Below, piece after piece: positions 17,611 through 58,908 of a DNA stretch of 64,000 nt. The stretch spans positions 16,319 to 80,318 of the forward strand of contig DATLKM010000222.1 in NCBI GenBank assembly GCA_035538435.1, given 5' to 3'. Positions within the stretch are counted from its first letter, which is position 1. Each line of letters begins with the position of its first letter. The position numbers and the translations under genes were made by a program. This DNA comes from Candidatus Binatia bacterium. GTDB taxonomy: Bacteria > Acidobacteriota > Terriglobia > Terriglobales > Acidobacteriaceae. The notes under the pieces were generated by a model. That model ran no database searches. It saw only the letters and a program-made list of their open reading frames with translations, and had not been told where the DNA came from.

Positions 17611-17613
17611 GTT

Positions 17614-20600: not shown

Positions 20601-20814
20601 TCTAGGCTGCGTGCCGCTCTGGACCGCTTCCGGAGCAGGCTCGGTGGCACGCCAGATTATGGGGACAGCGGTGATTGGGGGGATGCTCGCCGAAACCTTC
20701 ATCGGCAGATTCTTTGTTCCCGCAATCTTCTATGTGGTCGAGAAGCTATCAGGCGCTGAAAGGCCGGGGCCACTACCCCTCGCCCCCGCTCCCGCGCCGA
20801 GTCATGGAGATTGA
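17614..20814 (+). pseudogene. RND (HAE1, AcrB/MexB-like) inner-membrane pump interrupted by an in-frame TAA at 20413-20415
   Basis: Track ORFs 17614-20415 and 20449-20814 are in the same frame. Reading through gives ...[48 protein letters not shown]..., which is the conserved region of RND pumps. Confidence 0.8.
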
Positions 20815-20816
20815 TT

Positions 20817-22214
20817 ATGGAGAGGACTGCACTATTAGGAATTGCCGTTTTGCTTGCCCTGGAGGCCGGCTGCACCATGGGGCCGAAGTATAAACGGCCG
20901 GCTGTAGATGTTCCGCAGTCATATCGCGCACCGGCCCCCGAACAGTCTGCCCAGGCCTCATCGCTGGGCAACGAGCAGTGGTGGCAGGTCTATCAGGATC
21001 CCGTGCTCACACAACTGATCCACACCGCCATCGCGCAAAATTACGACGTGCGCATCGCCGCCGCCCGCGTGCTCGAAGCCCAGGCACAGGTCGGCATCAC
21101 GCGGGCCAACCAACTGCCCTCGGCAAGCGTGGGCGCGAACGTATTCAGTGAGCAGAATGCCAAGGTCACACATCTGTTCCCTGCTTACCAGGTCAATGGT
21201 GGAGAGCTGAGCCTCTCGGTGATCTGGAACCTGGATTTCTGGGGGAAATACCGCCGGCAAACCGAATCGGCACGCGCGCAATTGCTGGCCACGGAGTGGG
21301 GACAACGCGCTGTAATTTCGTCGCTGGTTGCCAACGTCGCGACCGCTTACTTCCAGCTTCGGGCTCTCGACAGCGAGCGGGAAATCTCGCAGCGCACGCT
21401 GGCGTCGCGGCAACAATCGCTGCGTTTGACTCAAACCCTCGAGAGCCATGGCGGAGCCTCCGGCCTCGACGTAAGCCAGGCGGAGCAACTCGTTTACACC
21501 GCCTCCGAAACGATTCCCGATCTCGAGCGGCAGATTCAGCAGCAGGAAAACGTGCTGAGTGTTCTGCTCGGCGAAAACCCGCAAGCGATTCCCCGCGGCC
21601 GCCCGCTTATCGAACAGCCTACGCCGCAGAACGTTCCCGCCGGCCTTCCCTCGGAACTCCTCGAGCGTCGGCCCGACGTGCGTCAAGCGGAAGAGATCAT
21701 CGTCGCAGCTAACGCGCAAATCGGAGTAGCGAAGGCCTCATTTTTTCCCAGCTTGTCGCTCACGGGACTCGGCGGCCTGGAGAGCAATGCCCTGCATAAT
21801 TTCATCAGCCAGCCCTCGGAAACCTGGGACGGAGTGTTCAGCGTAAGTCAGCCAGTTTTTCAGGGAGGAGCACTGCGCTCTAATCTCCGGCTCGCTCGCG
21901 CCGACTGGCAGGAATCCGTGCTGTCCTACCAGCAAACCGTTCAGAACGCTCTTGAACAGGTATCAAATTCCCTGGTCGCTTCTCAAAAGGACCGCGAATT
22001 CCGCGAACAACAGGAACTGCTCACCGGCGCGGCGCAACGCACCGATCAACTTTCTGAAGTGCTTTACAAAAATGGCGGGGCCAGCTATCTCCAGGTGTTA
22101 ACTGCCGAAACCAATTATTTTTCAGCGGAACTGAACCTGGTGCAAGCGCAGTACAACGAGCGCCTGGCTCTGGTGCAGGTTTACCAGGCCCTTGGCGGCG
22201 GCTGGCAGCAGTAG
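20817..22214 (+). CDS. RND efflux outer-membrane factor lipoprotein (NodT/OprM family)
   Basis: Lipobox LEAGCTMGPKY. C-terminal ...NLVQAQYNERLALVQVYQALGGGWQQ is typical of OMFs. ATG 20817 preferred over the TTG 20811 used by the track. Confidence 0.9.
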   Translation: MERTALLGIAVLLALEAGCTMGPKYKRPAVDVPQSYRAPAPEQSAQASSLGNEQWWQVYQDPVLTQLIHTAIAQNYDVRIAAARVLEAQAQVGITRANQLPSASVGANVFSEQNAKVTHLFPAYQVNGGELSLSVIWNLDFWGKYRRQTESARAQLLATEWGQRAVISSLVANVATAYFQLRALDSEREISQRTLASRQQSLRLTQTLESHGGASGLDVSQAEQLVYTASETIPDLERQIQQQENVLSVLLGENPQAIPRGRPLIEQPTPQNVPAGLPSELLERRPDVRQAEEIIVAANAQIGVAKASFFPSLSLTGLGGLESNALHNFISQPSETWDGVFSVSQPVFQGGALRSNLRLARADWQESVLSYQQTVQNALEQVSNSLVASQKDREFREQQELLTGAAQRTDQLSEVLYKNGGASYLQVLTAETNYFSAELNLVQAQYNERLALVQVYQALGGGWQQ

Positions 22215-30314: not shown

Positions 30315-30701
30315 GGGGGCGTCACGGCTTCGACGGAGATGCTTGCGGCCAGGAGGCATGCCGGGGCGCACACACCCGTAATCGCGTGCAAAATGATAAT
30401 TGCCAATCAAACAATGGCATACGCAGCCTAATTAGTTAGGCAGCCGTCCCAGGAGGCTTTGCCCGCGGGCCTCCGAAGGACGTCGCACAGTGGGCCGCTC
30501 TTCGCTGCTACGTCTGGGCAGCGAGGCTAAGATCACAGGCTAGCGGCTGGCGTTTCTTGTCCGTTCTGAGCGCGCAGCCGCGAACGTCCTGGGGGAAGCG
30601 CCGCAAGGCGCCAAACGCCCGGGGCATGAACCGGAATAAGCATGTAGTCTCCTGACCAGTAACGTTTTCGGACGCGGGTTCGACTCCCGCCGCCTCCACC
30701 A
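30315..30701 (+). ncRNA. ssrA: tmRNA (transfer-messenger RNA)
   Basis: 5' GGGGGCG pairs with 3' CGCCTCC-ACCA, including the G3:U identity pair. T-arm GCGGGTTCGACTCCCGC. Tag reading frame GCC AAT CAA ACA ATG GCA TAC GCA GCC TAA (30402-30431) encodes ANQTMAYAA. Confidence 0.9.
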
Positions 30702-30790
30702 CTATATCTAGTTGATTATAAACAGTTTATAAAAACATAGGGAAAATCGTACAATAAACGTACAATGGATTCGGCAAAGGGGCCGAATTC

Positions 30791-32005
30791 ATGCTCTCTG
30801 TTTACTCCCGCCACTACCCTCCCTGCACGTCCGACGACATCAACTACAGGCGTTGTCGCTGCCCGAAATGGGTCAATGGGGTCTTGGGGGCAGACGGTCC
30901 GTTCATTCGTCGTAGTGCGAAAACTCGAAGCTGGGAGAAGGCAGAGGAATTTAGGCGGCAACTGGAAGCTGGCTATGAGTCAAGGCAAAACGTCGAAGCT
31001 GACGCAATTGTCGCAACGTCTGAGCCGGTAAGTGCGAAAGATGCTGTTGATCGCTTCATCAAAACCAAACGCAATGAGAATCTTGCGGAGTCAACGATCG
31101 ACAAGCTCAAAACGATTTTTGAGAAGCAATTTCTTTCTTGGGCTAACGCAGCAAGACTCAAAAATCTTAACGACATCACAACTGTAGACCTGGAAGAATT
31201 TCGCGACACCTGGGAAGACGGGCCTCTCGCAAAGAAGAAAAAGCAGGAGCGAGTGATTGGATTCTTCTACTACTGCTTGCGACTGGGTTGGATAAAGTCC
31301 AATCCGGCTGTTTCGTTGGGGCGGATCAGAGCCGATGGACCTCCTACCGATTACTTTCCGAAGCATGAATTCGAACAGATTGTGGATGCCACATACGTTT
31401 ACCAGCCCAAAGGCTGGGTTGAGTGCAGAAATCAAGCGACGCGGCTCCGGATTCTCATTTGGTTGATGCGGTGGAGCGGACTCGCCATTCGAGATGCTGT
31501 CACGCTCGAGCGCCGGCGCCTGAATGACAAAGACGAGCTTTTCTTGTATCGCGCGAAAACCGGCAATCCCGTTTACGTTCCGCTTCCTCCGGACGTCGCG
31601 GAAGCGTTGCGGAATATCCCTCCTGGTCCCTGCCCGAATCCCCGCTATTTTTTCTGGTCTGGTAACGGATCGCCTAAATCCGTGGTTGGTAATTGGCAGC
31701 GGAGTTTCCGTCGGCTTTTCAAGATTGCGAACCTGCAGCGAGAGGACGGAACTCCAAAACGTTGCCATCCTCACATGCTCCGGGACACATTTGCAGTCGA
31801 AATGCTCCTCGCTGGCGTGCCTCTCGAACAGGTCTCCATTCTCCTTGGTCACAAGAGTGTGAAGATCACTGAAAAGCATTACGCACCTTGGGTGAAAGCT
31901 CGACAGGAAATGTTGGCTGCTAATGTTCGGAAGGCTTGGACAGTGCTTCGGGGTAGTGCTAAAAAGTCACGCCGCAAACAACCCGGGCGCGTGAAAACAG
32001 CGTGA
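30791..32005 (+). CDS. tyrosine recombinase / phage-type integrase
   Basis: Catalytic box HPHMLRDTFAVEMLLAGVPLEQVSILLGHKSVKITEKHY. Lies 90 bp downstream of the tmRNA 3' end. Confidence 0.9.
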   Translation: MLSVYSRHYPPCTSDDINYRRCRCPKWVNGVLGADGPFIRRSAKTRSWEKAEEFRRQLEAGYESRQNVEADAIVATSEPVSAKDAVDRFIKTKRNENLAESTIDKLKTIFEKQFLSWANAARLKNLNDITTVDLEEFRDTWEDGPLAKKKKQERVIGFFYYCLRLGWIKSNPAVSLGRIRADGPPTDYFPKHEFEQIVDATYVYQPKGWVECRNQATRLRILIWLMRWSGLAIRDAVTLERRRLNDKDELFLYRAKTGNPVYVPLPPDVAEALRNIPPGPCPNPRYFFWSGNGSPKSVVGNWQRSFRRLFKIANLQREDGTPKRCHPHMLRDTFAVEMLLAGVPLEQVSILLGHKSVKITEKHYAPWVKARQEMLAANVRKAWTVLRGSAKKSRRKQPGRVKTA

Positions 32006-32616
32006 AGCGATTAGCTGGCACGGCGGAGCTTTCGAATGTACGCGGAGCAAGACCGTCTCTGGCACTCTCAACGTGCGATAGCCTCGCTTATGGCGAGTTT
32101 CTGTGGAACCCCATTGAATCACTCCTGGTTCTCTTTCAAAGATCCTGCGGCGCGGAGGATTGCCTCAACTTCGCGCTTGGCAGCGGCCGCTGGGAGGGGG
32201 GCCGAAGGGGTACGCTTCCTGGCCGTGCATTAAAGAGGGAAATGGCAAATGAAAATGGCAAATGGACGCAGAAACTTGACCGCAACGTGCACAGTATTTT
32301 CGTTTATGGCTTCTAGCGTTTCGAGCGAAAACACCTGGGCGAAGTGCTAACGTAACGGTGACGGGCTATGGAATGCGTACCCGCAGCGTAAACCATTCGG
32401 TCGTCGGCGAATTTGATTGTGTCTGGCCCCCCAATTGTCTGCTGCGCTCGCCCCCGGAAAAACAATAGATATAGTCCCGATCGACGATCAGCAGTAAGTC
32501 TCAATTTCGACTCGCCGTGCTAAGCTCTAGGTACCGGAGTACGGAAGTTTACCGGGGTCTGTAAGCACCCGACACGTTGGGAGACTCCGAGAGGGGGCTT
32601 CCCACTCCGGCTACAT

Positions 32617-32781
32617 ATGGTGAAAAACGACACACCAAATCCAGCTCCCGCCCGACCATGGCCTGAGATTGCCCAAGAACTCGCCAAGGAAACGAACTCG
32701 GAGCGTGTTCTAGAATTGTCGGAAGAACTGGCTCGTGCCCTGAATGAGCAGGTGGCAGCAACTGGCCGCCTCAAGCAATAA
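32617..32781 (+). CDS. small helical protein (54 aa, below ORF-track cutoff)
   Basis: Manual translation gives MVKNDTPNPAPARPWPEIAQELAKETNSERVLELSEELARALNEQVAATGRLKQ. It is more protein-like than the Arg/Ser-rich antisense ORFs listed here. Confidence 0.3.
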   Translation: MVKNDTPNPAPARPWPEIAQELAKETNSERVLELSEELARALNEQVAATGRLKQ

Positions 32782-34117
32782 GTGCTCCCGCGAAGAATTC
32801 CTTTTTAGCGGAAGTGCGCGTGCCGTTTCCATCTTCAAAGCGGCAAGTAGACTGTCATGCTTACGAAGATTCCGCGAACTTTGGTCTCAGCCACGCCGCC
32901 GGCATGATTTCTTCCGCCGAAACCAGCGTCCCGGTCGCCGACCTTGTGGTTCACTCGCAATATAGGAGCTGGGGATCTTCGGCTCTCGGCATCCCCGGCT
33001 GAGAACAACGAGTTGGTGGAGGATCTCCCTTCGTCGTCTTCGACGTGCCAAAAACGCGTCGGTTTCAAACCTCTCTATTCTTGCTTTCCGGAGATATGTA
33101 CAATCCCAGTATTCGATTGCTCGTAATTCGGCGCACAACTTCTCCAAGGCAGTTACTCGGTCAGTGTCCATGTCCCTCCAAATCTTTGGCCAAGCTCAAT
33201 ATTGCGTTCTGAGCGACGAATATTCCTGTCGCGGTGGAAACCTAGGATGCTTCGAGCGGTCTTCCTTATCGCCACTAATTCGCACGGTTCCTGTCGAAGC
33301 CTCGGCGAGGAGGCACGCCCTTACTTGAGCAATACCCACACTTTACCATCACTCTTCTAACGGATGAAAGACCTTGAAGACAGATGAGCGCACCTTGCGG
33401 GCCAAACTATTTGATTGAAGAAAAAGCACTTCAGCAGAGGAAAAGTGCCGGGTTTCAGAATCCGTGCCGATATTTCGGCACCTTCTCGGGTTGAAAAGGG
33501 GGCTAGAGCAAGCCCTGTGATACCAGCCTCGACACGATGAGACATTCCTAAATCCGAACGCTGCAGCATAAACTGGCCCGCCCCTGAAGTAGGTCGTCGA
33601 CGGCCAAAGATGAATCACCAGATGTCCGCCTCGACTCCCTCAGCACACAATATTCACATGGAGGACTAGTGCCGGCAGCATTCATTGGCAAATCAGAAGC
33701 CCAAGGGGCGGCTCTCAGCCAGCGGTATCCAGTTTCACAACCTCGCGGACCTTCAGCTCAAGGTCACAAGCCGGGGCGCTCATCGAGGGTGTTTCCGTGG
33801 GGAACCGAGCAACTGAACTTGCACCAGCGAAGTTCCGCTCTGCTCGCTTCTCCACCAGCGGCCCGCATCTCAAGTAAATCGCGTATCGACAGATCGCATT
33901 CGTCACGCCGCGTGGCATCGCGGCATCGAAAACATCTCAATAGGGGACCGAAGTTGCAAAGCGCATCAAAATCATCGTGACCTGAGCTGCCTATCTGAAA
34001 AGAGGCTCTCCCAAGCGCACCCCAGATATTAAGTTGAGACCGCCGGATCATATCAGCCCAGATCTAGGGGCGAGAGACCAGCCGAAATTTGCCTGACGCT
34101 TAGTTATCCTCCATTTT

Positions 34118-35686
34118 TCAGGAAACCGAGGCCTCCCGATTTCCGTCAGCCCTGGTGTCGGCCCGCAGGTGTCGCAAGACTGCGAGCAAATCCGAGATCC
34201 TGGTCAGTGGGCGAGCGGATTTCCAACGCTCATCGTTCTGTCCTGGACGAATCGTCAAGCGGGAATACCGGAGTCTGTCGAATACCTGAAGCGCTTCGAC
34301 GGCATCGTTCGTTCGATTGAGGAAGGCCACAACGGCTGCCCGCTTCCGCTCAGCTTTAGGCACGTCTATACGCCAGCAATTGACGTTGGCGTCTGGGTCG
34401 TGGCGCGCGAGTACAACGGCAACTAGGAGCCCCGACCTCCGGTACCGGAGAAGTGACCTGAACCGCCCGCCCTTCCGCGCCACCTCAAGCTGAGTCGGAA
34501 AAACGTCAGTCAAATCCTTTATCAGAGCACTACGGATCAGAATCCCTCGCAACCGGTTGCTGGCCTGCGTTAACACTTCGGGCGTAAGGCAACCAAGCTG
34601 CCGATAGACGTTCAAAAGCCCACCAAATCGGGTGCAGTAGGTAGTCAAACTCGGACAACTTCGAGAGGCGTCGATGATCTTACCTGAAAGCTTGCCGTTA
34701 TGACGCAGCAGCAACGGCTTCAAACGTTCAAGCAGCTGCCCGTTACTGAGATTGTGCGTGAAGTTCTCAAATCTGGCTTGCGCTCGTTTGAAGAGTTCGG
34801 GTGAAACAATCGGATCAAGAGCGTGTCCACAAACTACCCACTGTTCCTCCGGCAATTTCCTGACTGGTCCCGAGAGGTATTCCGTTGTACGACCCCAGAC
34901 TTGAGTGCCGATGTATTTCGGGTTTTTCAGGAGGTTGGTAATTGTACAAACAGTCCACGCGTGCCCGGTTGTAAAAGCTACGTTTTCAGCATTCAGACTT
35001 CTTGCAATCGCCGTCAGTCCTTTTCCTTCGTCCGCGAATTCTCTAAAAATACGCTGTACGATTGCCACTTCTTCGGCCGGCCCCGGTACCAGAATCACTC
35101 GGTCATGCGAGATGCTCTTTCGCTCGCGGTAGGCCAGCAACTGCTTTGGCGTGCCATTGGCATCCAGCAGTTGCCGGCGCAGGCCGAAAGGAGCATAGCC
35201 ACCCGTCTTGAATCCCAGCTTTGCCAACCGGAGTAACCCGGCTCTGACCTTAACCGAGAGTTCCCTGCTGTATTCACCGGCCATTGTGCGCTTTAGTGCT
35301 TTCAGAATCAGTCCCGCCGGGCTGTTATCGTTCGTGAATTGCTCGGCGCAGTAATACACGGGAATTCCTGACGATTTGCACAGATATTCGTAATGCGCCG
35401 CTTCATCCGCGTCCTGAAATCGTCCCCATCGGCTGACGTCGTAGACCAGAATCGCTTGGAAGGAAACCTTCCCTTCAACGACTTCTTTCAACAGCTGTTT
35501 CAATCCCGCGCGGTTTCGGAGCCGTAAACCGCTCTTGGCGGGATCGGAATACGTTTTAACCACGCAGTAGCCTTGATCGGAGGCGTAACGCCCAATTGCA
35601 TCCGCTTGATTTTGCATTGAATACTGTTGGTGGTCTGTAGACATGCGAAGATACTGAGCAGCAGGAATCGTGAGCTTTGCGGTCAT
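34118..35686 (-). CDS. large serine recombinase
   Basis: Resolvase-type catalytic domain AAQYLRMSTDHQQYSMQNQ...ILVYDVSRWGRF plus a long recombinase C-terminal region. 522 aa. Confidence 0.9.
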   Translation of the reverse strand: MTAKLTIPAAQYLRMSTDHQQYSMQNQADAIGRYASDQGYCVVKTYSDPAKSGLRLRNRAGLKQLLKEVVEGKVSFQAILVYDVSRWGRFQDADEAAHYEYLCKSSGIPVYYCAEQFTNDNSPAGLILKALKRTMAGEYSRELSVKVRAGLLRLAKLGFKTGGYAPFGLRRQLLDANGTPKQLLAYRERKSISHDRVILVPGPAEEVAIVQRIFREFADEGKGLTAIARSLNAENVAFTTGHAWTVCTITNLLKNPKYIGTQVWGRTTEYLSGPVRKLPEEQWVVCGHALDPIVSPELFKRAQARFENFTHNLSNGQLLERLKPLLLRHNGKLSGKIIDASRSCPSLTTYCTRFGGLLNVYRQLGCLTPEVLTQASNRLRGILIRSALIKDLTDVFPTQLEVARKGGRFRSLLRYRRSGLLVAVVLARHDPDANVNCWRIDVPKAERKRAAVVAFLNRTNDAVEALQVFDRLRYSRLTIRPGQNDERWKSARPLTRISDLLAVLRHLRADTRADGNREASVS

Positions 35687-35801
35687 TGTGCCCTCCTGCG
35701 TTCGCCTATCGGCCCGAATTCTGGAAACTTTAGAAGGTCATCTTCACAAGACGCCGTGCTATCCGTCTTCGGAACGAAAGCCGCTATTGGGAGCTAACCA
35801 T

Positions 35802-37448
35802 ATGGCAAACAAAATCGCGTCTTCGCATGCGTCCGAGCGCGTTGGAAAAAGCCAGACTCCGTCGGTTCAGGAAGTTATTCCAGCTGCTCAATACGTTCGG
35901 ATGTCGGATGAAAGCCAGCGCTATTCGCTCGAGAATCAAAAAGCCGCAATTCAGGAATATGCTTCCCGCCACGGCTTTGCGGTAATCAAGACTTACGCTG
36001 ATCGGGGAAAGAGCGGGGTGGTTGCGAAACGGAGAAAAGGGCTGGCCCAATTGTTGCAGGACGTTGTGGCGGGAAAACCTGCGTACAAGGCGATCTTGGT
36101 TTATGACGTGAGCAGGTGGGGTCGGTTTCCAAACAACGATGAAGCCGCGCACTATGAGTTCCTGTGCTTTAATTCAGGGATACCGCTGCACTATTGCGCC
36201 GAGCCATTCAATAATGATGGTACGGCGATGAGCGCTTTGCTCAAGGCGCTCAAAAGAAGCATGGCAGCCGAGTTCAGCCGAGAACTCAGCGAGAAGGAGT
36301 TTCGCGGCAAGAGCCTGCTGGCAGAACTCGGGTTTTGGGTAGGAGGGTTGCCTCCTTACGGTTACCGGCGACTGATGATATCGGCCGGCGGTAGTCCAAA
36401 ACGAGCTCTAGACCGCGGCGAGCAGAAGAGCTTGAAGACAGACAGGGTCGTCCTAACCCCGGGACCTCCTGACCAGGTCGAATGCGTCCGCTTGATTTTT
36501 TCCATGGCACTTGAAGGAGAAAGTTGCCGTTCGATCGCCTGCAAGCTCAACGAACGCGGCATCACCCACTTTGGGAGACCGTGGTTGCATGGCGCCGTCT
36601 ATCAGATTTTGAAGAATCCACTTTTTGCCGGATGCAATGTCTGGAACCGCACATCAACCCGGATGAGGACCACCCTGAGAAAGATTCCGAGTCAAGAATG
36701 GATCACCAAACCGCATGCATTCCAGCCGCTCATTGACCAAACGACTTTTGACCGGGTTCAGATGATTTTGCCTTTAAGTCCTCAGCGTATCTCAAATGGG
36801 GTAATCCTGAAGAAAGTTAGACGCTTACTGCAAATCAAAGGGTACCTCAGCGGCGAACTTCTCAATAACGCCGGCGGTTTGCCGTCGTTGAGATCGCTCA
36901 AAGACCGGTTCGGGACTTGCAGAGAACTCTATCGGAAAGTAGGCTACAAGATCTCTGCGTTCCAAGAGTTGCGGAGCGAGCGCCTGACACGCTCGATTCG
37001 CCTGAGACGCGCACTCATGGAGCAAATCACGAATCTGTTTCCTTCCCATGTGACGGTCTCCCGCCTTCCAAACCAAAAGCGGTCAGTCTTGGTTGTTGAC
37101 GCTCAATTCGTGGTTTCAGTTCTTTTTTGCAGTCCGATAAAACGTCGCGGCAAATACGTCTGGTTTGTCGAACCGAACCCCGCCGAGAAAAACAGCATCA
37201 CTCTGCTCTGTCCGGTGAAACGCTCGCACGACCGCGTGTTGGCCTATTTCGTTTTTCCGCGATTGAATGGATTCAGCACCCATTGCATGTTTAGGAATGA
37301 TCCATTTCTTAAAGAGGCCGTTCGCCTTCGCGAACTCTCGCAGTTCTATTCGATAGTGAAGGCAATTCGCACGGAGAACTTGGGCGACCTTTGTCTGCAA
37401 ACCCCTTCCAACCTGTGCCTGCAGCCAGCCAAGCCGTCTTCGCCATGA
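35802..37448 (+). CDS. large serine recombinase (paralog of 34118-35686)
   Basis: AAQYVRMSDESQRYSLENQ...ILVYDVSRWGRFPNNDEAAHYEFLC. Start trimmed to ATG 35802 (MANKIASS) because the track start at 35670 would overlap the divergent paralog. Confidence 0.9.
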   Translation: MANKIASSHASERVGKSQTPSVQEVIPAAQYVRMSDESQRYSLENQKAAIQEYASRHGFAVIKTYADRGKSGVVAKRRKGLAQLLQDVVAGKPAYKAILVYDVSRWGRFPNNDEAAHYEFLCFNSGIPLHYCAEPFNNDGTAMSALLKALKRSMAAEFSRELSEKEFRGKSLLAELGFWVGGLPPYGYRRLMISAGGSPKRALDRGEQKSLKTDRVVLTPGPPDQVECVRLIFSMALEGESCRSIACKLNERGITHFGRPWLHGAVYQILKNPLFAGCNVWNRTSTRMRTTLRKIPSQEWITKPHAFQPLIDQTTFDRVQMILPLSPQRISNGVILKKVRRLLQIKGYLSGELLNNAGGLPSLRSLKDRFGTCRELYRKVGYKISAFQELRSERLTRSIRLRRALMEQITNLFPSHVTVSRLPNQKRSVLVVDAQFVVSVLFCSPIKRRGKYVWFVEPNPAEKNSITLLCPVKRSHDRVLAYFVFPRLNGFSTHCMFRNDPFLKEAVRLRELSQFYSIVKAIRTENLGDLCLQTPSNLCLQPAKPSSP

Positions 37449-38400
37449 TGCCGTCGAGGGCTCACGACAGTCATTTTTCCTGAACCGAAGCGGCTGCAGG
37501 ATATAGCGACGATCGCTTACAACCAGCCTACTACTCGATTCCTGGGGGTTCAGCTTTCCATTGGCGGAGAAACACACTATGGGTGAGTCCACTTGCGAAC
37601 TGAATGCTATGACGGCAGAGGCTTTGTCACTGGAACCGTGACCGACTACGCCTTCAATACCAGGACGAATGAGCAAATTCGAGCCGGCCAGTTGTAGATC
37701 AAGGAGCATATAGGCCAGCCGAAGCCTCTCAAGGTACGTTAGGTAGATTGGGTGCCGGTTGCATGGCACTGCAGCTCTGGCGGCGATAAGGGAACCGAAC
37801 GGCGCGTTGCCTAAGAGCTTTTTGGAAATTCCCCTGCGAGTACGCTTCGCAAACATTCGCAACTCTCGGCTAACTCGAGTCATTTGGATGACGCCCCGCT
37901 GCAGGTATGCACCACGGAGCCTTTACGAGGAGATCGCTGAGTTTCGTTTTTCGTATCCAAAGCCGTTGGTGGAGGAACCGAATAGACTGAGCCTCGGGCC
38001 CGTCGGGCCCCGCTGCCGGTGACTTTGCTTGCGTCGACGCGTGGATATCCAGCTCTCGAAAGCAGTCGGTGTCTAAGAACTGCTATCCGATGCCGAACCG
38101 GGTTTTGGAGCAGCACGAAGGGCCGGTTTTACGAATCACGAACAGCTTAAATCGGACAGGCCCTTTAGAAACAGAGATCCTAGTGACGATTCAAAGCTCG
38201 GAGCCGTTGCTGACATTGAGATTTGTTCGGATTTCGTAACAAATGAGATTTTATCCTTGACAGCGATCAGCCCGAAAAGCATAATGCGTCCGTTTCCCGA
38301 GCAGCCTGCCTTTATTCCGCTTCCCCTGGCGCTAACAGGCAGGCTTGCAGAGATCTCTTCGACGCTAAATCCGCCCGTGTCAGAGATGTAATCGCAAAGC

Positions 38401-39024
38401 ATGAGCAATGCATCCCCCCAAGGCCTGTCTGACAAGTTCGCCCACTGGATGGCCTTGTACGCGGCGTATTTGTTTTTAGCAGGTTGGGGGTATCTGAGAA
38501 ACTTCTTTTGGGTGTTCGGTGTAGATGCAGGCTGGCTGGATCTCGGTGTGAACGATACGATTGCGCAAGGGTTTTCCGTATTGTTCGGCACGGGATGGCT
38601 CCTATCCGCCGTGTATTTGCTTGTTTTTTTCCTTTCGCTGGCAACAGAAGTGTGGTGGAGCACTCACGGCAAGAAGCTGGATACGTTCGTGGCCGTAGTA
38701 TTGGTTCTTCTCTTTCCCGTCACATTTTGGGTTGCCAGATGTGCCGGAATCGCCCAAGCCAATAAAGACCGGAGTGATAAGACTTCTCTGCCCACGATCA
38801 CTTTCACGTCGAGTAAGTGCAGCTATCGCGGCAAAGTCGTATACATCAAGAGCGAGGCGCTCTATGTTTTTGATTTGGCGTATTTGGAAGTACCGCAAAA
38901 ACCAGACGAGTGCCGGTTCGATCTCAGCGGGGTTTCAGCCGCGGTCCCGCAGCTTTGGTTGATGAGAGCGCCCGACATGAGCGATGTACGAGTCGTTCAT
39001 TACGCAAAGGAGGCCATACCATGA
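38401..39024 (+). CDS. integral membrane protein (three hydrophobic segments), first gene of the secretin-like module
   Basis: Hydrophobic segments HWMALYAAYLFLAGWGYL, FGTGWLLSAVYLLVFFLSL and FVAVVLVLLFPVTFWV, followed by a soluble C-terminal approx 80 aa. Confidence 0.6.
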   Translation: MSNASPQGLSDKFAHWMALYAAYLFLAGWGYLRNFFWVFGVDAGWLDLGVNDTIAQGFSVLFGTGWLLSAVYLLVFFLSLATEVWWSTHGKKLDTFVAVVLVLLFPVTFWVARCAGIAQANKDRSDKTSLPTITFTSSKCSYRGKVVYIKSEALYVFDLAYLEVPQKPDECRFDLSGVSAAVPQLWLMRAPDMSDVRVVHYAKEAIP

Positions 39025-39425
39025 CGGCCAGGTTGAACGCATCAGCCGTAGTTTTTCTGTCGGTCTTGTTACCACTCATTTTCCCCTGTCATGCGTTTTC
39101 CGACATTCTGTTCCGGGCGAAGCAGCCAGTCAAAATCGGACACGGCACTCAGGACGGTGCGAAAATCCATTGGACCGACTGTTCGGGGCAGAACCCCGAA
39201 GATTTTGAAGCACCTCCCTACTCTCTCGACTTGACGGAAAATTGCTCCGTAGGTCCCCCCGCGTTCGGATTGGATTGCAAGGGCGAGTATTGCACCGTGG
39301 TCGACAGCAGCAGACTGCAGAGATACATGCCAGGCGTGGGCAATGGCGAGAAAGTGTATCTCAATATTCAAGCGCACGGGGTGGACATCCGATCCACGGC
39401 GGGAACCATTCATCTGGAAAAGTAG
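39021..39425 (+). CDS. small secreted protein (134 aa)
   Basis: ATG 39021 overlaps the upstream stop (ATGA) and is preceded by AAGGAGG. Signal peptide MTARLNASAVVFLSVLLPLIFPCHAF. Four Cys. Confidence 0.6.
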   Translation: MTARLNASAVVFLSVLLPLIFPCHAFSDILFRAKQPVKIGHGTQDGAKIHWTDCSGQNPEDFEAPPYSLDLTENCSVGPPAFGLDCKGEYCTVVDSSRLQRYMPGVGNGEKVYLNIQAHGVDIRSTAGTIHLEK

Positions 39426-39669
39426 GTTACATCCTTTTGCTGGCACTTCGACGTTCCCGTAAGTCTGCGCTGTGAATTGAGGTCTCGATGAGACCTGGTT
39501 CGGCTGTCATGACGGGGCGGCAAGCTTGAAACGGCAGCAGCGGGCAGCAGGCAACAAAGACGACTACGTCTCTCCGGTGCGGAGAAAAATTGCGATGTTT
39601 GAAGAAGCTCGTAGTCTGTCTCGGCAATTAAGAAACAGCCGACCTGAATGGATTGGTTTCGGAGATGCT

Positions 39670-42600
39670 ATGTTTTTTCGTCTTGCTACTCTCGCGATCT
39701 GGACTCTTTTATCTGGTTTCAGTGTGGCGCAGCAAGCCTTACCCAATCAGAGTACAACAACTCTGCAGACCAGCATTAATAGTTCGAGCACCAGCGCTCC
39801 GCCGCCCAGATATTTGATTGATGTGAAGGACACAGCAGCGCTCACCCCCCTCAAGTGCCTGCCAGCACCGAAGCACTCGGAAATCAAGGTCAACGTAAAG
39901 AAAGAATACTTCATGGGCGACGCGCCCTTTCACTTGGATGCAACGGCGACAGATGGATTTCCGGTCACGGTGAAGATTACGACAGGGGCGCAATTCGTAG
40001 ATTTTGATCCCGAAAATTTGACGATCACTCCATCGAGTACGTCTGCCGGGACCGTGGAGTTGTCAGTCGAGGAAGGACAAGACTCTCTGACGCATTCAAG
40101 CTGTTCCAATCGAGCCACTCCCGTAAGCAAGTCTTTCAAAATCGTCGAGCAGCAAAGACAATGCATTCCAGGACTTTTTTCTCCCGATTCGGCGGCGGCG
40201 CTGGCTGCACCGAAGTCCGATCTTTCGACTCTGTTGCCCTACATGGGCAATCCTGCTCCGTTTTCATTTCTGTCCATCGGCGGAACGCTTCTGATCTATT
40301 CAGCGCGTTGGCCTCTGCTGGCCGGTGATACGGCCCGGTTGAACACAATTGAAGCGAAACTGATGGATTTGATCCCGCTGAGCAAGAACCTTCCTCCCAC
40401 CTCGTCGACAGGGACCACGGCACCACCAACGGGCCCACCAACTCCTCCTGCGAAGCCGGTTTATACGCTCGAGGTGCCGGTGCCACATTCCGCCGCACTC
40501 GGAGATCTAGCTGCCAAACTTTCGACCGCGAACTATAGCGACTTCTTCATCCAGGACGTGGGGAATCAACGAGTCCGTATCAGCACCGCGACCATGCCGG
40601 ATTGCACCAAGTTGACGGCATTTCTGAGAACCATCAGAGACATCGCTTGGCAACCATCGCCGGTGAACGGAGTGGCCAAACTGTTCTTTCTTAATAGTTC
40701 GGATGTGAGCGCCGCATTGGGTGCAAACTCCGGATCCAGTTCCTCTGCCTCGAGCCCCGGATCGGGAGGTATCTCTCCAGCCAGCGGTGGGGTTGCGGCC
40801 GGGTCGAGTGGAGGGGGAACCCCGCCATCGGGACAGTCAGGCACAAGCGGCACACCCGCTTCGGGAAGCGCGGGATCCAGTGGGGGAGGCGGGCCCAGCG
40901 GAGGTCCATCCACGGCAACGCCGAGCAGCTCCACCACTACGACCGCTACTACAGTGGGGCCCGGTGGCGGCGCCGGCACAACGACATCTCCCAATGCCCC
41001 AAATACTGGGAGTTCGTCCAGTGGATCCGGTTCGGGCGGTACGACGCTGGGCGGCGGGTCTGGATCTTCGGGATCGACTATTCCCAGCGCCGCGGCGACC
41101 GCTGCCGCCGTAGGAACAGATCAAATGTTATTTGCCGCGCCGGTGATTGGAGAAGACAGCCTGGTGAGCGAGAAGAAGCGCCTTCTCGCCCTGCTGGATC
41201 TGCCGCGGCCACAGATGATTTTGAACGCCTGGACACTGCAAACCTCCTCCAGCGATCCCGATATCGCGAATAAGGCCGCCGAATATGCGCGCCATTTGAT
41301 CCTGCAGTACAACGACGTCTTGCAGAACACGATTGACGTGGGCTGGGAGTATTTGCGGGATCAAGTCGCGCACCCGAACGATTATTTCAATCTGGATTTC
41401 TACACCTATGTGACCGGCAAATTTGTCGCGGATCCTCCATTGGATTCGTGCTCTGCTTCGCAGCCAGAGGCCTTAGTCTCACAGTGCATTGCGGGCCGCT
41501 TGATGAAACGACAAATGGGTACGCCTCTCCCCAAAGAGAACCGGCAAAAATTCGGGGTTTGTCCGGCCGATAAGTATTGTCTCGGTTATGCGAACATATT
41601 TCAGCCATTACACCCGCGCCTTACCGACCTGCTCCTGGCGGTAATTGCAGGCAACGACCCCTACACGACCACCATGGCGGCTATCAACAGAATGGAAGAT
41701 CTTGCCAGCGGCTACCCTCAGGATTTTGCCGCATTTCAGGGTGATTGCTTCGAAAAAGACCGGCATTTCGACCCGAACGATGAGCCGGCGTCACTTGGAC
41801 ACGAACACTTTTTCCTGGAATGCTTTCGAGGTGCCGCGGCGGCTGCGTTTCTTTCGTCGGGGGAGGAACCGGGAGGTCTCGGCCTGTTACGAGCATCGCT
41901 GGCAGATTTCTTATTCAACTACAAGCAGGCGCAGTTTTATCCGCATGAATTCAGCCCTTACGAATTGAGCCATAGTGCGCAACAACTGGATACTGCACTG
42001 GCTCCGCTGGTAGACGCATTCAATCGCGACCTCGCCGCCTACCAGCTTTCCGTGTCGGAACGGATCATTGCGCATAAGGCAAAAGAAGCTCCATGGGCAG
42101 GGGCGGAAAAAGCAACTTTTATCAACAATGGCCTAATCACGGTTCGCACCCTCAGCGGCTTTGAAACTGTGGTCAACACCACCTCCCAGAGCTTCCTTGA
42201 TGCCACCCAACAGCCGACTGTTTCAGCCCTACTGAGCTCCATCGAAGGCGCACACGGAACGGGCGTGTCAACCAGCTCAGCCACCGGGATGACCGACGTG
42301 TTGCAGAACATCAGCCCGATTCAGGCGCAGGTGATTATGGGAACATTGGCTGCGGTGCAGACTTCAAAAGTGCAAATTGGAAGATCATTGAACATCGACA
42401 TCACCCCCCGAAGCCTCGCGGGAGCTTCCTCCGCCGAATTGACGGTAAAGCTCAATGCTGATGAATCGGCGAGCCCGACGTACTACAACCCGTCCCAGAG
42501 TACTGCAGCCGACCTGTCTCGAGTGGCGAATCATGACACCACGACAAAAGTTCGGGTCGACTCCATCAAGCTTTTCGACGTTTCCACTCTTACCGCGGAA

Positions 42601-43062
42601 TTGCAGAAGTCACGCACGCGTTTCCCGCTCCTTCCGCCTTTCGTGGAGATTCCGTATATCGGAACTCTGATCGGAGTTCCACTGCCGAGTGCAAAGGAGT
42701 TCCACAACAGCACTGTCATGATCAGCGCGATCATTGTGCCCACTGCTGCAGACATCGCTTTGGATCTGGAGTTCTTTCCCGACCGGTTGGTGGATTCCAA
42801 TGGAGCTTCACGCTGCACCTGGCCGGACGCGAACGGAAACCCACCGGCTCCCGACTCTGCAGTTCCCCGGTGCAACCTGCGTTTGGCAAGGTCCTTCTCG
42901 GACATCGACTCGACCGGAATAACGCACTTCCACCGCGAAATGGTTTCCTGCATTGCGAACCGGATGCATACCGGCCATGCAATTTTTGACACGGGCGGGC
43001 ATCCTGCACTCAGTAACTGCTGGTCTTTGTCACTTCAGAAAGAAGAGTGGGATAGTAAATAA
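39670..43062 (+). CDS. giant secreted secretin-like outer-membrane protein (1130 aa)
   Basis: Signal peptide MFFRLATLAIWTLLSGFSVAQQ with GGAG 5 nt upstream. Secretin-N-like modules. Junction KKRLLALLDLPRPQMILNAWTLQTSS. C-terminal RFPLLPPFVEIPYIGTLIGVPLPSAKEFHNSTVMISAIIVPTAADI resembles the secretin C-terminal motif. The CDS itself is well supported; the family call is motif-level only. Confidence 0.6.
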   Translation: MFFRLATLAIWTLLSGFSVAQQALPNQSTTTLQTSINSSSTSAPPPRYLIDVKDTAALTPLKCLPAPKHSEIKVNVKKEYFMGDAPFHLDATATDGFPVTVKITTGAQFVDFDPENLTITPSSTSAGTVELSVEEGQDSLTHSSCSNRATPVSKSFKIVEQQRQCIPGLFSPDSAAALAAPKSDLSTLLPYMGNPAPFSFLSIGGTLLIYSARWPLLAGDTARLNTIEAKLMDLIPLSKNLPPTSSTGTTAPPTGPPTPPAKPVYTLEVPVPHSAALGDLAAKLSTANYSDFFIQDVGNQRVRISTATMPDCTKLTAFLRTIRDIAWQPSPVNGVAKLFFLNSSDVSAALGANSGSSSSASSPGSGGISPASGGVAAGSSGGGTPPSGQSGTSGTPASGSAGSSGGGGPSGGPSTATPSSSTTTTATTVGPGGGAGTTTSPNAPNTGSSSSGSGSGGTTLGGGSGSSGSTIPSAAATAAAVGTDQMLFAAPVIGEDSLVSEKKRLLALLDLPRPQMILNAWTLQTSSSDPDIANKAAEYARHLILQYNDVLQNTIDVGWEYLRDQVAHPNDYFNLDFYTYVTGKFVADPPLDSCSASQPEALVSQCIAGRLMKRQMGTPLPKENRQKFGVCPADKYCLGYANIFQPLHPRLTDLLLAVIAGNDPYTTTMAAINRMEDLASGYPQDFAAFQGDCFEKDRHFDPNDEPASLGHEHFFLECFRGAAAAAFLSSGEEPGGLGLLRASLADFLFNYKQAQFYPHEFSPYELSHSAQQLDTALAPLVDAFNRDLAAYQLSVSERIIAHKAKEAPWAGAEKATFINNGLITVRTLSGFETVVNTTSQSFLDATQQPTVSALLSSIEGAHGTGVSTSSATGMTDVLQNISPIQAQVIMGTLAAVQTSKVQIGRSLNIDITPRSLAGASSAELTVKLNADESASPTYYNPSQSTAADLSRVANHDTTTKVRVDSIKLFDVSTLTAELQKSRTRFPLLPPFVEIPYIGTLIGVPLPSAKEFHNSTVMISAIIVPTAADIALDLEFFPDRLVDSNGASRCTWPDANGNPPAPDSAVPRCNLRLARSFSDIDSTGITHFHREMVSCIANRMHTGHAIFDTGGHPALSNCWSLSLQKEEWDSK
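40720..41110 (+). repeat. Ser/Gly/Thr low-complexity linker coding region inside the secretin-like gene
   Basis: Encodes ANSGSSSSASSPGSGGISPASGG...SSSTTTTATTVGPGGGAGTTTSP...GGGSGSSGSTIPSAAATAAAVG. It spawns several spurious overlapping ORFs in the track. Confidence 0.7.
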
Positions 43063-43154
43063 GCGCGTTCGTTTCTCGACCGGCGCATCTTCTTAGTACG
43101 TCGTTTCCTGGCCTCAACGCCACCGGGTAAATAGCTTCCTCCACCCTGTTGGCC

Positions 43155-43257
43155 ATTGTTGAGCCACCACCGAGGGTCGGAAAACCTGGACCAAGACCAA
43201 ACGCTCGTTGTACTGCCCTTGCGTCAGGTTGAGTGGTGCCGAGACATAATTCATCTC
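43155..43257 (-). pseudogene. 3'-terminal fragment of an outer-membrane-factor (OMF) gene
   Basis: The translation EMNYVSAPLNLTQGQYNERLVLVQVF, then a frameshifted LGGG, parallels ETNYFSAELNLVQAQYNERLALVQVYQALGGGW of the intact OMF at 22.1 kb. No upstream body is present. Confidence 0.5.
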
Positions 43258-43352
43258 GCCTGGCGCCACGTGATCTTCTTCGCCATTGCCTGCAACATCA
43301 CGTCCCGTACCTTCATCGCCCGCTCCATCGCGGCCTTCGGATAATCTTCCAT
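43251..43352 (-). pseudogene. possible 5' fragment of an IS transposase (HTH leader)
   Basis: 33-codon ORF MEDYPKAAMERAMKVRDVMLQAMAKKITWRQAR*. It resembles, from memory, the N-termini of IS481/ISNCY-type transposases (…KITW.QAAEI.G.S…). Abuts the OMF fragment. Confidence 0.3.
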
Positions 43353-43845
43353 GCTCCGCATGGTCTCTCATCCTCGCCGCCCGCCAAGCGGACATTTCAC
43401 GTGCTATTTCAACCGGACATATCATGTGCTATCGACAGACACTGACTGTAGGTTTGACCAATCAGTGAAACTCGGCTACTATTGCGGCATTTCGTGGGGA
43501 TCGCAATTCCCGGCATACGGGAATGTGCCGGGTTCGCGGGGCCTAATAGATCAACCTTCCCCCAAAGGCAGGCCCCGCGTGAGATGTCGCACCTTCATCA
43601 CTCGCCTGCTCGGGGGGGAAAGCGAGAAAGGAGGGCCTTGACCAATCAAGGAAATCCACCCGAGCTTGACGTGACGACCTGAGCCAAATGACGTAATAAC
43701 AATTGGCTACTGTGTCCCGTCGTGAACTGAGGAACGATTCCCGACGATGACTCATCCAGAAGGCGGAACATGGCGTGTAAGCAGATCGGCGCTTCATCCA
43801 GGCCTGTGAGTGTGATCCGGATTTAACGCCAACTTTGTCCGGCGT

Positions 43846-45591
43846 TTAGTTCTTCACCTTTTCCTTCTCTGCCGCATTGACAAGCGGATTCGTCTCCAAC
43901 GGCTTTCCGCGGTCAACCAGGCCCACGTAATCCGTCGCGTGGAAGGGATAGAAACGATCCGACTCTCGCCCTGTCGAGCTCAACTTGATATCCACGCGCC
44001 GATTGTTGGCCAGAACCAGGGTCTGAATTCTCGTGAGTGCTTTCTGCCGCTCCTCCTCCGTTAGGTTCGGATTCCGCTGAATCAAATCCTTAACCTGCTC
44101 CTCGCTGAGATTTTGTTCTTTGCCGTAGGCCTGGGTCTCGAGGTTCGCTTCCGGAACTCCCTGTTCGACCAGAAAGCGTTTGGCCAAGTCGGCTCTTCTC
44201 TCCGAGAGCGCTTGGTTGTAGCTGACGGGTCCGCGCCTGTCGGCATGACCGCCAAGCACAAGATGTGCATTCGGCTCCGCAGTCAGAAATGCCTTGAATG
44301 ATTCAGCCAAGGCCTTCAACGCGTCGCGTTCGCTGGCCAGCAGGGCGTCATCCGTTTTCAGAGAGTGCGGCCGATTTGTGGGGAAATACACACTTCGCGA
44401 AAGAGTCAGTTCCGGCTGTTCGATGGTACCTACGATGTGGAGTTCAGCGGTGCGAGTTTCGCTCGCGCCGCACGGGTTTGATGCCGTCAGGGTGTATCGG
44501 ACGGTTTCATCGACCGAGCCCGGAGTGGTTTTCTTGGGAGCAATCTCGAGCGACCGGTTCCCGCTGGCGCTAACGGTTCCGAGTTGGTCAATGGAGACGG
44601 TCGAGGCGTTGGACGCCGACCAACTCAAGGCGGAGTTGTCATTTTGCACGACCTTATCGCCGATGCGCCGGTAATGAACTTCCCCGGGCGCGAGCTGGAG
44701 CTGCGCCTGAATCCCGGTGTTGACATTCACCGTAGTGCTTGAAGTCGCCGTGCCACCTGGACCAGCGGCGGTCAGCTTGTATGTCGTGGTCTGCTTGGGT
44801 TGAATACTCTGGTCACCACTCGACGCCACCTGCCCTACGTTGGCGATCTGGACGCCAGGCGCATCCGTGGTTGTCCACTTGAGCTGCGATGAATCGCCGC
44901 AGTTCAGTTGTGCCGTGCTGGCGGAAAGTTGGGCTGTAGGTTTGGCGACGGCGATAGTGGCGCTGGCTGTACCCGCGGTAAATCGCGGGATCGAGGACAG
45001 CTTCAATCCGCGTGGCCAGTCAACCGTCTTTCGGATGCCCTTCGGAACGTCAATCACGGCACGCTTGTTCGCGAGCACCTCCACTTGCCCGGACCAGACA
45101 TCTCCGTCCTTATTTTGAACGGTGATTTGGTGGGTTCCCGGAGGGACGGCGAGTTCCTGCTTCCATACCCAACTGTTGTTGAACTCGTCGCCGTGGCCAA
45201 CAAAATAGGCGGGAGTTTTTCCATTCAGCAGCACTGCATCGCGGTCAGCGCCTTCGATGGTTATCGCTCCGAACGGACCTGGTACAGCACCGGCAATCGG
45301 CTGCAGGCTCACTTCGAGATCGGCAGTTTTGCCCGCCGTGATCGTGACGGTGCGGGTCTCGGGCTTATAACCGTAATTCGCCAGTTCGATGTTGTGGTCG
45401 CCTGCGCTTAAACTCAAACTGCGATGCTTGCTGGCTTCGCTGATAGCGCGGCCATCCACCCACACATAAGCCTGTTTTGGAGTCACGTGGATGGCGACCT
45501 TGCCGTCGCCACCCTGTGCCATGCACGGCCCAATCAGCCCCAACGCAAAGGCACAACCGGCAAATGGAATCAACGGGAGATGCGTTTTCAT
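43846..45591 (-). CDS. OmpA-family peptidoglycan-binding protein with PEGA-like and Ig-like modules
   Basis: Signal peptide. PEGA-like AIHVTPKQAYVWVDGRAI...GYKPETRTVTITAGK. C-terminal LVLGGHADRRGPVSYNQALSERRADLAKRFL. Confidence 0.85.
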   Translation of the reverse strand: MKTHLPLIPFAGCAFALGLIGPCMAQGGDGKVAIHVTPKQAYVWVDGRAISEASKHRSLSLSAGDHNIELANYGYKPETRTVTITAGKTADLEVSLQPIAGAVPGPFGAITIEGADRDAVLLNGKTPAYFVGHGDEFNNSWVWKQELAVPPGTHQITVQNKDGDVWSGQVEVLANKRAVIDVPKGIRKTVDWPRGLKLSSIPRFTAGTASATIAVAKPTAQLSASTAQLNCGDSSQLKWTTTDAPGVQIANVGQVASSGDQSIQPKQTTTYKLTAAGPGGTATSSTTVNVNTGIQAQLQLAPGEVHYRRIGDKVVQNDNSALSWSASNASTVSIDQLGTVSASGNRSLEIAPKKTTPGSVDETVRYTLTASNPCGASETRTAELHIVGTIEQPELTLSRSVYFPTNRPHSLKTDDALLASERDALKALAESFKAFLTAEPNAHLVLGGHADRRGPVSYNQALSERRADLAKRFLVEQGVPEANLETQAYGKEQNLSEEQVKDLIQRNPNLTEEERQKALTRIQTLVLANNRRVDIKLSSTGRESDRFYPFHATDYVGLVDRGKPLETNPLVNAAEKEKVKN

Positions 45592-48635: not shown

Positions 48636-49006
48636 GCCGACAGTCTACCGCCGAACGACCGTGAAAATGAAACGGCCCATTCCGCTCGATGTGACGCGCC
48701 GTCGTATGCTGGGGGGCGTCATAGAAAACAATCACGCTTTTTGGGAAAGAACCCAAAACAATCCCGGCCTGTCCGAGAGAGCCGAGACTATGCAACACTC
48801 GTACACCTACCCATAAATGCCCCAATAGTATGTCACCCCGAAGAATTTCATCAATGAATTGATCGGCAGGGGGTGTCCTCACAGCAACTTAGGACACTAC
48901 CTTCGGCAGTAATATACTCCACAAAATAATAGCGAGTTTAGAATCGCCTCACCTGATCAACGGGAAGTACGGGGGTCTGTACTGCTCCCGCAAAGCTTCT
49001 GACGGG

Positions 49007-58520: not shown

Positions 58521-58908
58521 TCAACCCTCGCACCCATGCAAACGAATTCCGCGATAGTATCTCGCTCCGAAGAATTTCGCAATGAATGAACCTTTCGGGG
58601 TGGTGGCTTAAATGACGTGGCATAAAACAAACGCAGTAGAATCGGCCCATGAGTAAGAAAGAGTCGGGCGACCGATTCCTCAACCAGGCGATGGAGAACC
58701 TCCGTCAGCTGCACGGGAAGCCCGACAGAGCGAGGAACAGGAAAGCCGCTATCAGCCCCTCTCGAAGGAAGAGTGGGACGCGGTAGCGGACGATCTGAAA
58801 GAGTATCTTCGGATCACCGAGAAGTATCGCCGCTACGAAAAACTGGTCAATGCGCAGACGGAGAGCGTTCCCAAGAACCCAACGATTTTCGGAGCCGTAA
58901 TGGGAAGG

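Follow-up and report, generated by a model that had tools for sequence, protein, structure and literature searches.

A probable, very divergent secretin-superfamily protein and its large family in Acidobacteriota

Secretins are defined by the machines that they serve, namely type II and type III secretion systems (T2SS and T3SS), type IV pili (T4P), Tad systems and filamentous phages, and by a well-conserved core that is seen by profiles. In the type Vd protein PlpD, a patatin fused to a POTRA domain and an Omp85-type barrel couples a lipase to an outer-membrane protein. The type Vd secretion system (T5dSS) is mentioned in PMC4793230. The amphipathic helical loop (AHL) and beta-lip, which serve outer-membrane insertion, are described as the element best conserved among secretins; in InvG their residues precede GATE1 in the sequence, and canonical N3 domains have a variable, often disordered loop (PMC6155069). 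The protein dealt with here, g3, is encoded in a 64,000-nucleotide stretch of the contig DATLKM010000222.1 (assembly GCA_035538435.1, positions 16,319 to 80,318), hereafter called the window, whose coordinates are used throughout. The g3 family departs from described secretins on both counts, as it is undetected by Pfam, NCBIfam and PDB sequence searches, has a core predicted to be split, and is never found beside a known machine in the loci surveyed. Taken together, the data indicate that g3 probably belongs, as a very divergent protein exported by Sec, to the secretin superfamily, and most likely forms a multimeric gated outer-membrane channel, and that the two genes preceding it, g1 and g2, are a separate unit.

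In the list of open reading frames (ORFs) g3 spans positions 39670-43062 of the + strand, stop codon included, and measures 1130 amino acids (aa) counted from MFFRL. The frame is open since a TTG at 39526, and a public gene call begins at 39595; homologues align from a signal-peptide-like N-terminus matching MFFRL at 39670. A previous reading of this DNA made by a model (the sequence-only reading) had described g3 as secretin-like and very divergent. All the peptides that it quoted are found in the g3 translation, and the description is borne out by fold comparison and by a GspD-like order of motifs, reported below. The full-length protein was modelled with AlphaFold2 (AF2) from an alignment of 71 sequences, and aa 800-1130 were modelled a second time from 116 sequences. 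The full-length model has a mean predicted local confidence (pLDDT) of 75.3 and a predicted TM-score (pTM) of 0.68, low confidence being confined to low-complexity parts. Its 37 best Foldseek matches in PDB are all secretins (E from 4e-5 to 5e-3, probability ~1), and include proteins from T2SS, T3SS and T4P (GspD, InvG, PilQ, PulD). The top 16 PDB matches of the aa 800-1130 model are similarly secretins, with weaker E values (~8e-3) and TM-scores of ~0.2; the drop is probably due to the removal of the N3-like domain and of the first core strand. Matches ranking 38-49 are SraP, cadherin and Big_2-type domains (root-mean-square deviation, rmsd, 3.4-4.6 A over ~100 columns). These Ig-type matches plausibly correspond to aa 48-159, because this is the sole all-beta domain of such size in the model. 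The best match in BFVD is a 409-aa viral protein without a name (E=7.4e-5). A secretin subunit, made of an N3 domain followed by long beta-hairpins of outer and inner sheets and having secretins as nearest neighbours, is thus what the g3 model predicts. The predicted parts of g3 are the following.

39670-39729, + strand: probable Sec signal peptide, MFFRLATLAIWTLLSGFSVA, presumably cleaved before QQ (read from the sequence)
39811-40146, + strand: Ig-like beta-sandwich, aa 48-159 (all-beta in AF2, pLDDT ~90)
40183-40647, + strand: two alpha/beta modules, aa 172-239 and 265-326, including YTLEVPVPHSAALGDLAAKL...VRISTATMPDCTKLTAFLRTIRDI (AF2 secondary structure)
40672-41196, + strand: N3-like domain, aa 335-351 and 477-509, ending at the LDLPRPQ junction (AF2)
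40729-41079, + strand: disordered Ser/Gly/Thr insertion of ~120 residues, aa 354-470 (pLDDT below 50)
41212-41250, + strand: first long beta-strand of the secretin-like core, aa 515-527, QMILNAWTLQTSS (AF2)
41257-42087, + strand: helical insertion of 277 residues, aa 530-806 (AF2, pLDDT mostly 85-97)
42118-42774, + strand: beta-hairpin-rich secretin-like core, aa 817-1035 (AF2; hhalign to GspD)
42775-43059, + strand: C-terminal Cys-rich domain, aa 1036-1130 (AF2, helix at 1081-1096)

The order of domains predicted by AF2 agrees with that proposed from the letters only, in which an Ig-like segment is followed by N-type alpha/beta modules, a low-complexity stretch, the LDLPRPQ junction, hairpins and a C-terminal motif. 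The N-termini of homologues share the pattern M...hydrophobic...AQ(Q), and this signal-peptide-like start, together with the invariant cysteines, speaks for export. In the model, aa 265-326 feature the beta-alpha-beta-beta-alpha order typical of secretin N-domains, and the same order fits the split region 335-509, where a strand (335-337) and a helix (343-351) are followed, past the disordered stretch, by two strands (477-481 and 485-489) and a second helix (497-509). The Ser/Gly/Thr stretch, formerly described as a linker of 130 aa, is real and disordered; it appears to be an insertion within the N3-like domain and not a linker between domains. At the junction and in the strand that follows, D510, P512, P514, Q524 and S526 are invariant in the 71 sequences. 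The helical insertion, in which two long helices of ~40 residues each (530-566 and 763-806) bound a globular helical part with four conserved cysteines (C631, C637, C693, C718), has no known counterpart in canonical secretins. If the topology of g3 matches that of InvG, the insertion would sit where the lip/AHL should be. The core has long strands at 817-844, 900-938, 954-980 and 1009-1023, and contains IDITPRSL...AELTVKLNADES, HDTTTKVRVDS, RFPLLPPFVEIPYIGTLIG and AIIVPTAADI. The C-terminal domain, with conserved C1049, C1068, C1094 and C1117, can be equated to the secretin S domain by position only. No match to the N0/STN domain was found.

Sequence comparisons at the level of the family point in the same direction. 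When 41 g3 relatives were singly compared to Pfam, weak, sub-threshold matches were given to Secretin_N by 5 and to Secretin (PF00263) by 3 (best E=3.2e-4), and every other Pfam family was a singleton match. The Secretin_N matches terminate at the LDLPRP junction, and the one Secretin match whose position is visible (relative P0130, E=0.021) spans the VTP...RFPLLPPFVEIPYIG region. The C-terminal part of the g3 family was also aligned by hhalign, in local mode, to 49 C-terminal fragments of GspD; these measure at most 178 aa, and the profile comparison is therefore restricted to the C-terminal part of the core. A score of 25.1 was obtained (P=0.011), which was reached by none of 60 column shuffles (mean 14.1 +/- 2.9); the reversed control scored 14.0. 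Four motifs are paired, and their order is the same as in GspD: l-x-VTPRSL with klkVTPqI, HDTTTRVRVDS with R-x-I-x-x-V-x-V, RFPLLPPFVEIPYIG with KVPLLGDIPvlGxLF, and VVPTA with FIRPTI. The series of secretin C-terminal motifs is therefore matched by the g3 family in the expected register. A very remote homology between g3 and secretins is considered rather likely.

The g3 gene is a real, conserved gene. A word-index search retrieved 11 metagenomic relatives, 34-51% identical to g3 overall, none of which has a Pfam domain. An exhaustive search by hidden Markov model with the C-terminal 647 residues of g3 yielded at least 593 clusters, counted as representatives at 50% identity, under a limit of E<=1e-3, of which 308 remain at E<=1e-30. 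A scan of one genome per species identified 46 loci with a g3 relative, all in metagenome-assembled genomes (MAGs) of Acidobacteriota (Acidobacteriaceae, Bryobacterales, Korobacteraceae, Pyrinomonadaceae, Terracidiphilus, Sulfotelmatobacter); the scan used peptide patterns of the most conserved g3 stretches, and is biased to closer relatives. The family is large, without annotation, and among the genomes scanned confined to Acidobacteriota. It is not described in the searchable literature (orphan or secretin-like combined with patatin or Acidobacteria; DUF3376). The copy in the window looks intact, because it keeps all the residues that are invariant in the 71- and 116-sequence alignments.

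Genes close to g3 relatives were clustered, and Pfam was run on representatives of the encoded ORFs. A lipase-like gene of one of three types, denominated PatA, PatB and c14, adjoins g3 relatives in 20 of the 46 species-level genome loci. It is usually found directly downstream and in the same direction, is upstream in three genome loci (L024, L028, L039), and is downstream in all 8 distinct metagenome contexts. Spacing may be tight, as the lipase-like gene starts 11 nucleotides (nt) before the stop codon of the g3 relative in L004, and the two genes are 31 nt apart in L066. PatA proteins, found in 21 loci, measure ~1,100 aa; GGGxR and GxSxG motifs are located near residues 40-80 and DGG at 782, so that the catalytic motifs are parted by ~10 predicted transmembrane (TM) helices, and the Pfam patatin match is weak (E=5.8e-4). 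PatA (L004 13269-16592; also L013, L017, L018 and others) would be a lipase of unusual build, into which a membrane domain is inserted. PatB, present in 7 loci, features patatin and DUF3376 domains and C-terminal TM helices. Proteins of the c14 type measure ~960 aa and have 10-12 TM helices, HG-type and AHSLG motifs and no Pfam match; they can be called lipase-like by these motifs only. Among the relatives nearest to g3, P0017 is the closest, with 58% identity in the core, and is followed after 31 nt by a c14-type gene; P0001 and P0002 are accompanied by a gene for a 560-aa patatin, and P0004, L011 and L012 by PatA.

Other genes recur on the 5' side. A signal-peptide protein of 225 aa, bb225, which ends in ...GIRW and has no Pfam match, is encoded directly 5' of g3 relatives in ~20 loci (for example L002 9299-9976 and L009 7278-7955), and the window hosts no counterpart of it; by its sequence it looks like an outer-membrane beta-barrel. 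Small secreted helical proteins are also found near g3 relatives, as u259 (259 aa) in 13 loci, where it often precedes bb225, and c8_190 in 6 loci. A weak JAB match of u259 (E=0.0026) is the only one that it has in PADLOC, and g1, g2, g3, PatA, PatB, bb225 and c14 have none. Neither the Walker A motif of GspE/PilB nor the prepilin motif was found in ORFs within ~7 kb of a g3 relative in 56 loci, or in those of the window between 30 and 52 kb. The claim that g3 lies outside T2SS, T4P, Tad, T3SS and inovirus loci holds for the window and for 59 related loci.

A mechanism can be proposed on these grounds. We infer oligomerisation, outer-membrane location, channel function, coupling to lipases and substrate. 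After Sec-dependent export, g3 would assemble as a secretin-type multimeric gated channel, in which the N-type modules would build periplasmic rings, and the helical module, plausibly disulfide-bonded, would be an added crown. The inner-membrane lipase-like protein, where present, would be its functional partner; the two together would bridge the inner and outer membranes and deal with a substrate derived from lipids or associated with a membrane. The window copy of g3 would function by itself, cooperate with a partner whose gene is elsewhere, or be without function. A wider proposal, which is held as possible yet rather doubtful, is that the g3 family and the membrane lipases make up an undescribed envelope system, featuring a secretin channel free of ATPase, pilus and needle, a large, disulfide-bonded helical crown in the place of the lip/AHL and interchangeable inner-membrane patatin or hydrolase partners, by which lipid-derived material is moved, or a membrane-attacking activity is delivered or controlled, across the acidobacterial envelope.

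Several observations weigh against a lipase-coupled secretin channel. Compared to Pfam and NCBIfam, g3 itself matches no family at E<=1. Among PDB sequences, a profile built on the C-terminal half of g3 retrieves noise and not a single secretin at E<=10, whereas a PulD fragment of 102 aa, validated at 182 bits versus 6hcg and used as positive control, matches 22 secretin PDB sequences, among which GspD, PilQ, RcpA, pIV, InvG and MxiD. The canonical secretin motif was sought in the window and in related loci, and was not found. The probability given by HH-suite to the hhalign alignment is just 3.8%. Foldseek TM-scores are low (0.08-0.32, with rmsd of 10-30 A), and the match is therefore one of local hairpin geometry and not a global superposition; low values are to be expected of a lone monomer model set against subunits taken out of 15-mers. 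All the structural evidence consists of monomer predictions. The AHL/lip is not recognisable in g3, the helical insertion filling its expected position; helices 851-861 and 883-895 of the model are candidates. About half of the relatives, as well as the window copy, have no lipase neighbour, so that coupling is not obligatory. Lipase-like partners are polytopic and lack signal peptides, and are therefore unlikely as cargo.

The low TM-scores and the lack of a profile match of its own would also suit a g3 that is not a pore, and is instead a periplasmic or surface protein, structural or adhesin-like, with hairpins superficially similar to those of secretins. An Ig-like N-terminal domain and Ser/Thr-rich low complexity, typical of surface proteins, speak for the same. 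This explanation is unlikely. The top 37 fold matches are secretins without exception, Secretin and Secretin_N are the sole Pfam families found in more than one relative, at the right positions, and the four motifs follow the GspD order and beat shuffles. Secretin profiles, on which the sequence-only reading had relied for a decision, find no match in g3 itself and weak matches in relatives; the missing match is offset by the fold matches and by the sub-threshold hits to Secretin and Secretin_N across the family.

A different function, at the same level of improbability, is that of a conflict or programmed-death system, in which g3 would be the constant envelope component and the lipases interchangeable agents of membrane destruction. 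The fold of the partner does vary (patatin A, patatin B, GxSxG hydrolase-like) while g3 is constant, as is typical of effector swapping. Moreover, genes encoding CHAT/NB-ARC/TPR proteins, a caspase (Peptidase_C14) and a DUF900-like alpha/beta hydrolase are found near g3 relatives in L001 (14275-18033), L009 (1-2297), L041 (2621-5432) and L066 (1-1609). Conflict-type neighbours are however limited to these four contexts, neither g3 nor its partners have a PADLOC match, and a lipase gene is missing beside about half of the relatives. Since a conflict role is compatible with a secretin nature of g3, it competes on function only, and the secretin assignment is not touched by it.

The surroundings of g3 in the window include three more features.

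38401-39425, + strand: g1-g2, translationally coupled two-gene cassette (adjacent in 7/7 loci; absent from 59 g3 loci)
43063-43845, no strand: gene-poor gap of 783 nt after g3, at the position of the lipase-like gene in relatives (no long ORF)
43846-45591, - strand: convergent gene with PEGA and OmpA domains (Pfam OmpA and PEGA)

Searches by tblastn for a remnant of a patatin or c14-type gene were negative both in 43063-43845 and elsewhere in the window. In L030 the equivalent position is occupied by a homologue with 44% identity to the PEGA/OmpA gene; between this homologue and the g3 relative of L030, which shares 37% identity with g3, a c14-type gene is found. The lipase partner has been lost from the window, or was never there. 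The sequence-only reading had stressed that secretion-machinery genes are missing from the window, and none was detected: neither GspE/PilB Walker A nor prepilin motifs were found in its six frames, and no secretion-machinery gene was recognised by Pfam among 35 ORFs (38 with g1-g3).

To the left of g3, a tmRNA gene (30315-30701, tag ANQTMAYAA) is followed by a tyrosine integrase gene (30791-32005) and by two divergent genes for large serine recombinases (34118-35686, - strand; 35802-37448, + strand), and the G+C content falls from ~0.59 to ~0.53 past 29 kb. The interval 30315-37448 looks like an island integrated at ssrA; the window was searched for a second tmRNA 3' end that would act as attR, without success. 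It is unproven that g3 lies on the island, because all the mobility genes are to its left, and the OmpA/PEGA neighbour to its right is syntenic with that of a distant relative. Genes on the right are ordinary (S41 peptidase, SnoaL, DJ-1/PfpI, LysR, Vut_1, Sel1, sigma-54 activator). Window positions 32316-43072 are matched by a Logan contig of SRR8500457 at 99.86% identity.

The proximity of the tmRNA, integrase, two recombinase genes and g1-g2 cassette, all 0.2-9 kb upstream, together with a G+C content below that of the left flank, may suggest that g3 is the secretin of a mobile element, pIV-like or carried by an integrative and conjugative element (ICE), and exports the tmRNA-integrated island or its products. 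This is very unlikely, as the window hosts neither a Zot/pI ATPase, relaxase or T4SS (type IV secretion system) gene nor an attR repeat, g3 relatives are found in diverse chromosomal contexts across Acidobacteriota, and the synteny of g3 and OmpA/PEGA is kept in a relative only 37% identical.

The two genes upstream of g3 are arranged as had been described, and the three ORFs are indeed co-directional: g1 spans 38401-39024 (207 aa) and g2 39021-39425 (134 aa), both on the + strand according to the ORF list. The ATGA overlap that joins g1 and g2, and the AAGGAGG located 8 nt 5' of the g2 ATG, to which the coupling of g2 had been attributed, are both visible in the sequence. Three hydrophobic segments had been assigned to g1. 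Two are strong in a hydropathy scan, and the third, weaker and N-terminal, was read by eye; g2 has a single N-terminal hydrophobic segment. The one strong promoter-like site (11/12 matches) is 5' of g1, and g2 and g3 are 244 nt apart. By Pfam, NCBIfam and PADLOC no match was found for either g1 or g2. The latter is a small Cys-containing secreted protein paired with the membrane protein g1.

Homologues of g1 or g2 were found by tblastn in none of the 59 loci that host a g3 relative. Conversely, g1 has 27 homologues, g2 homologues were taken from 8 metagenome loci (L057-L064), none of which carries g3, and g1 is directly 5' of g2 in all 7 metagenome loci that reach the upstream flank of g2 (identity of the pairs 54-75%). 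In L059 the pair is ~2 kb from genes encoding a TrwC relaxase and a TraG/TrwB coupling protein. Because of this vicinity, and because in the window the pair follows tmRNA, integrase and recombinases, g1-g2 is best read as mobile-element cargo, unrelated to g3. That g1 and g2 are dedicated partners of g3 in a stand-alone three-gene envelope module, as first proposed, would agree with co-directional, adjacent genes, with the coupling of g1 to g2 and with the small secreted proteins (u259, c8_190, bb225) often encoded 5' of g3 relatives, where g2 is similarly placed, but is the least probable explanation of all given the missing co-occurrence, the recurrence of the pair without g3, the g2-g3 gap, the position of the promoter-like site and the conjugation genes of L059. 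Genes for proteins of 207 and 134 aa located 5' of the g3 relative in L068 (2501-3692) were considered as g1 and g2 and rejected; they have no sequence similarity to these and one is on the opposite strand, and the lengths coincide by chance.

The g1 product exactly matches the NCBI-annotated protein VND65_11250, from a MAG labelled 'Candidatus Binatia bacterium', and one g1 relative comes from Candidatus Sulfotelmatobacter. The label of the bin may be wrong, given this origin and the fact that the 46 genome loci hosting g3 relatives belong without exception to Acidobacteriota. Elsewhere in the window, an RND efflux operon (16468-22214) encodes an HlyD-type adaptor, an AcrB-family pump and an OEP/TolC-like outer-membrane factor. 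Further genes of the left half encode CarboxypepD_reg/OMP barrel, FG-GAP/ASPIC, BshC, MscS, multicopper oxidase and PIN-domain proteins. An imperfect direct repeat of 57 nt (74% identity) is found at 48793-48849 and 58522-58578, 9.7 kb apart.

If g3 is a channel of the secretin type, the structural and functional range of secretins widens, Acidobacteriota, a dominant and poorly studied soil phylum, would host a candidate new envelope system, and a whole clade of secretins would be overlooked by profile-based tools for secretion systems. For the window the meaning is narrower, as it features one apparently intact, solo g3 copy beside what seems unrelated mobile-element cargo.

Among known systems, the T2SS secretins GspD/PulD/EpsD (PF00263 plus Secretin_N PF03958) provide the best structural match (5zdh_A, E=4e-5). 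As in these proteins, in g3 the predicted N-type alpha/beta modules precede the core, the junction is of the type ...LD-P-x-x-Q followed by a hydrophobic strand, the C-terminal motifs have the same order, and export is plausibly Sec-dependent. Unlike them, g3 has no threshold profile match, no N0/STN detected, a predicted helical insertion of 277 aa after the first core strand, ~120 disordered residues in the N3-like domain and an Ig-like N-terminal domain; a Cys-rich C-terminus replaces the S domain that binds the pilotin, and GspC-M, ATPase and pseudopilin genes are not near. Among the T3SS secretins (InvG/MxiD), open-gate InvG chains are the most consistent matches for the fold of the core (~210-220 aligned columns), and the N3 domain of InvG has, as g3, a variable or disordered loop (PMC6155069). 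Differences are the rmsd of 10-14 A, the lack of injectisome genes and a lip/AHL that is not recognisable. Protein pIV of filamentous phages is a secretin working without a pilus machine, and the best BFVD match is pIV-like in size, its identity not being established. However, pIV depends on the ATPase complex pI/pXI of the phage, of which no equivalent is present near g3; g3 is also almost three times longer and belongs to a chromosomal family widespread in Acidobacteriota. In PlpD, finally, lipase and 16-strand barrel belong to one polypeptide, of which the lipase is secreted as the passenger, whereas the lipases next to g3 relatives are separate, polytopic proteins without signal peptide, and the outer-membrane part is of the Omp85 type in the former and secretin-like in g3. 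The architecture and the genomic partnership of g3 are rated as unlike those of any described secretin, and its fold class as that of the secretin superfamily.

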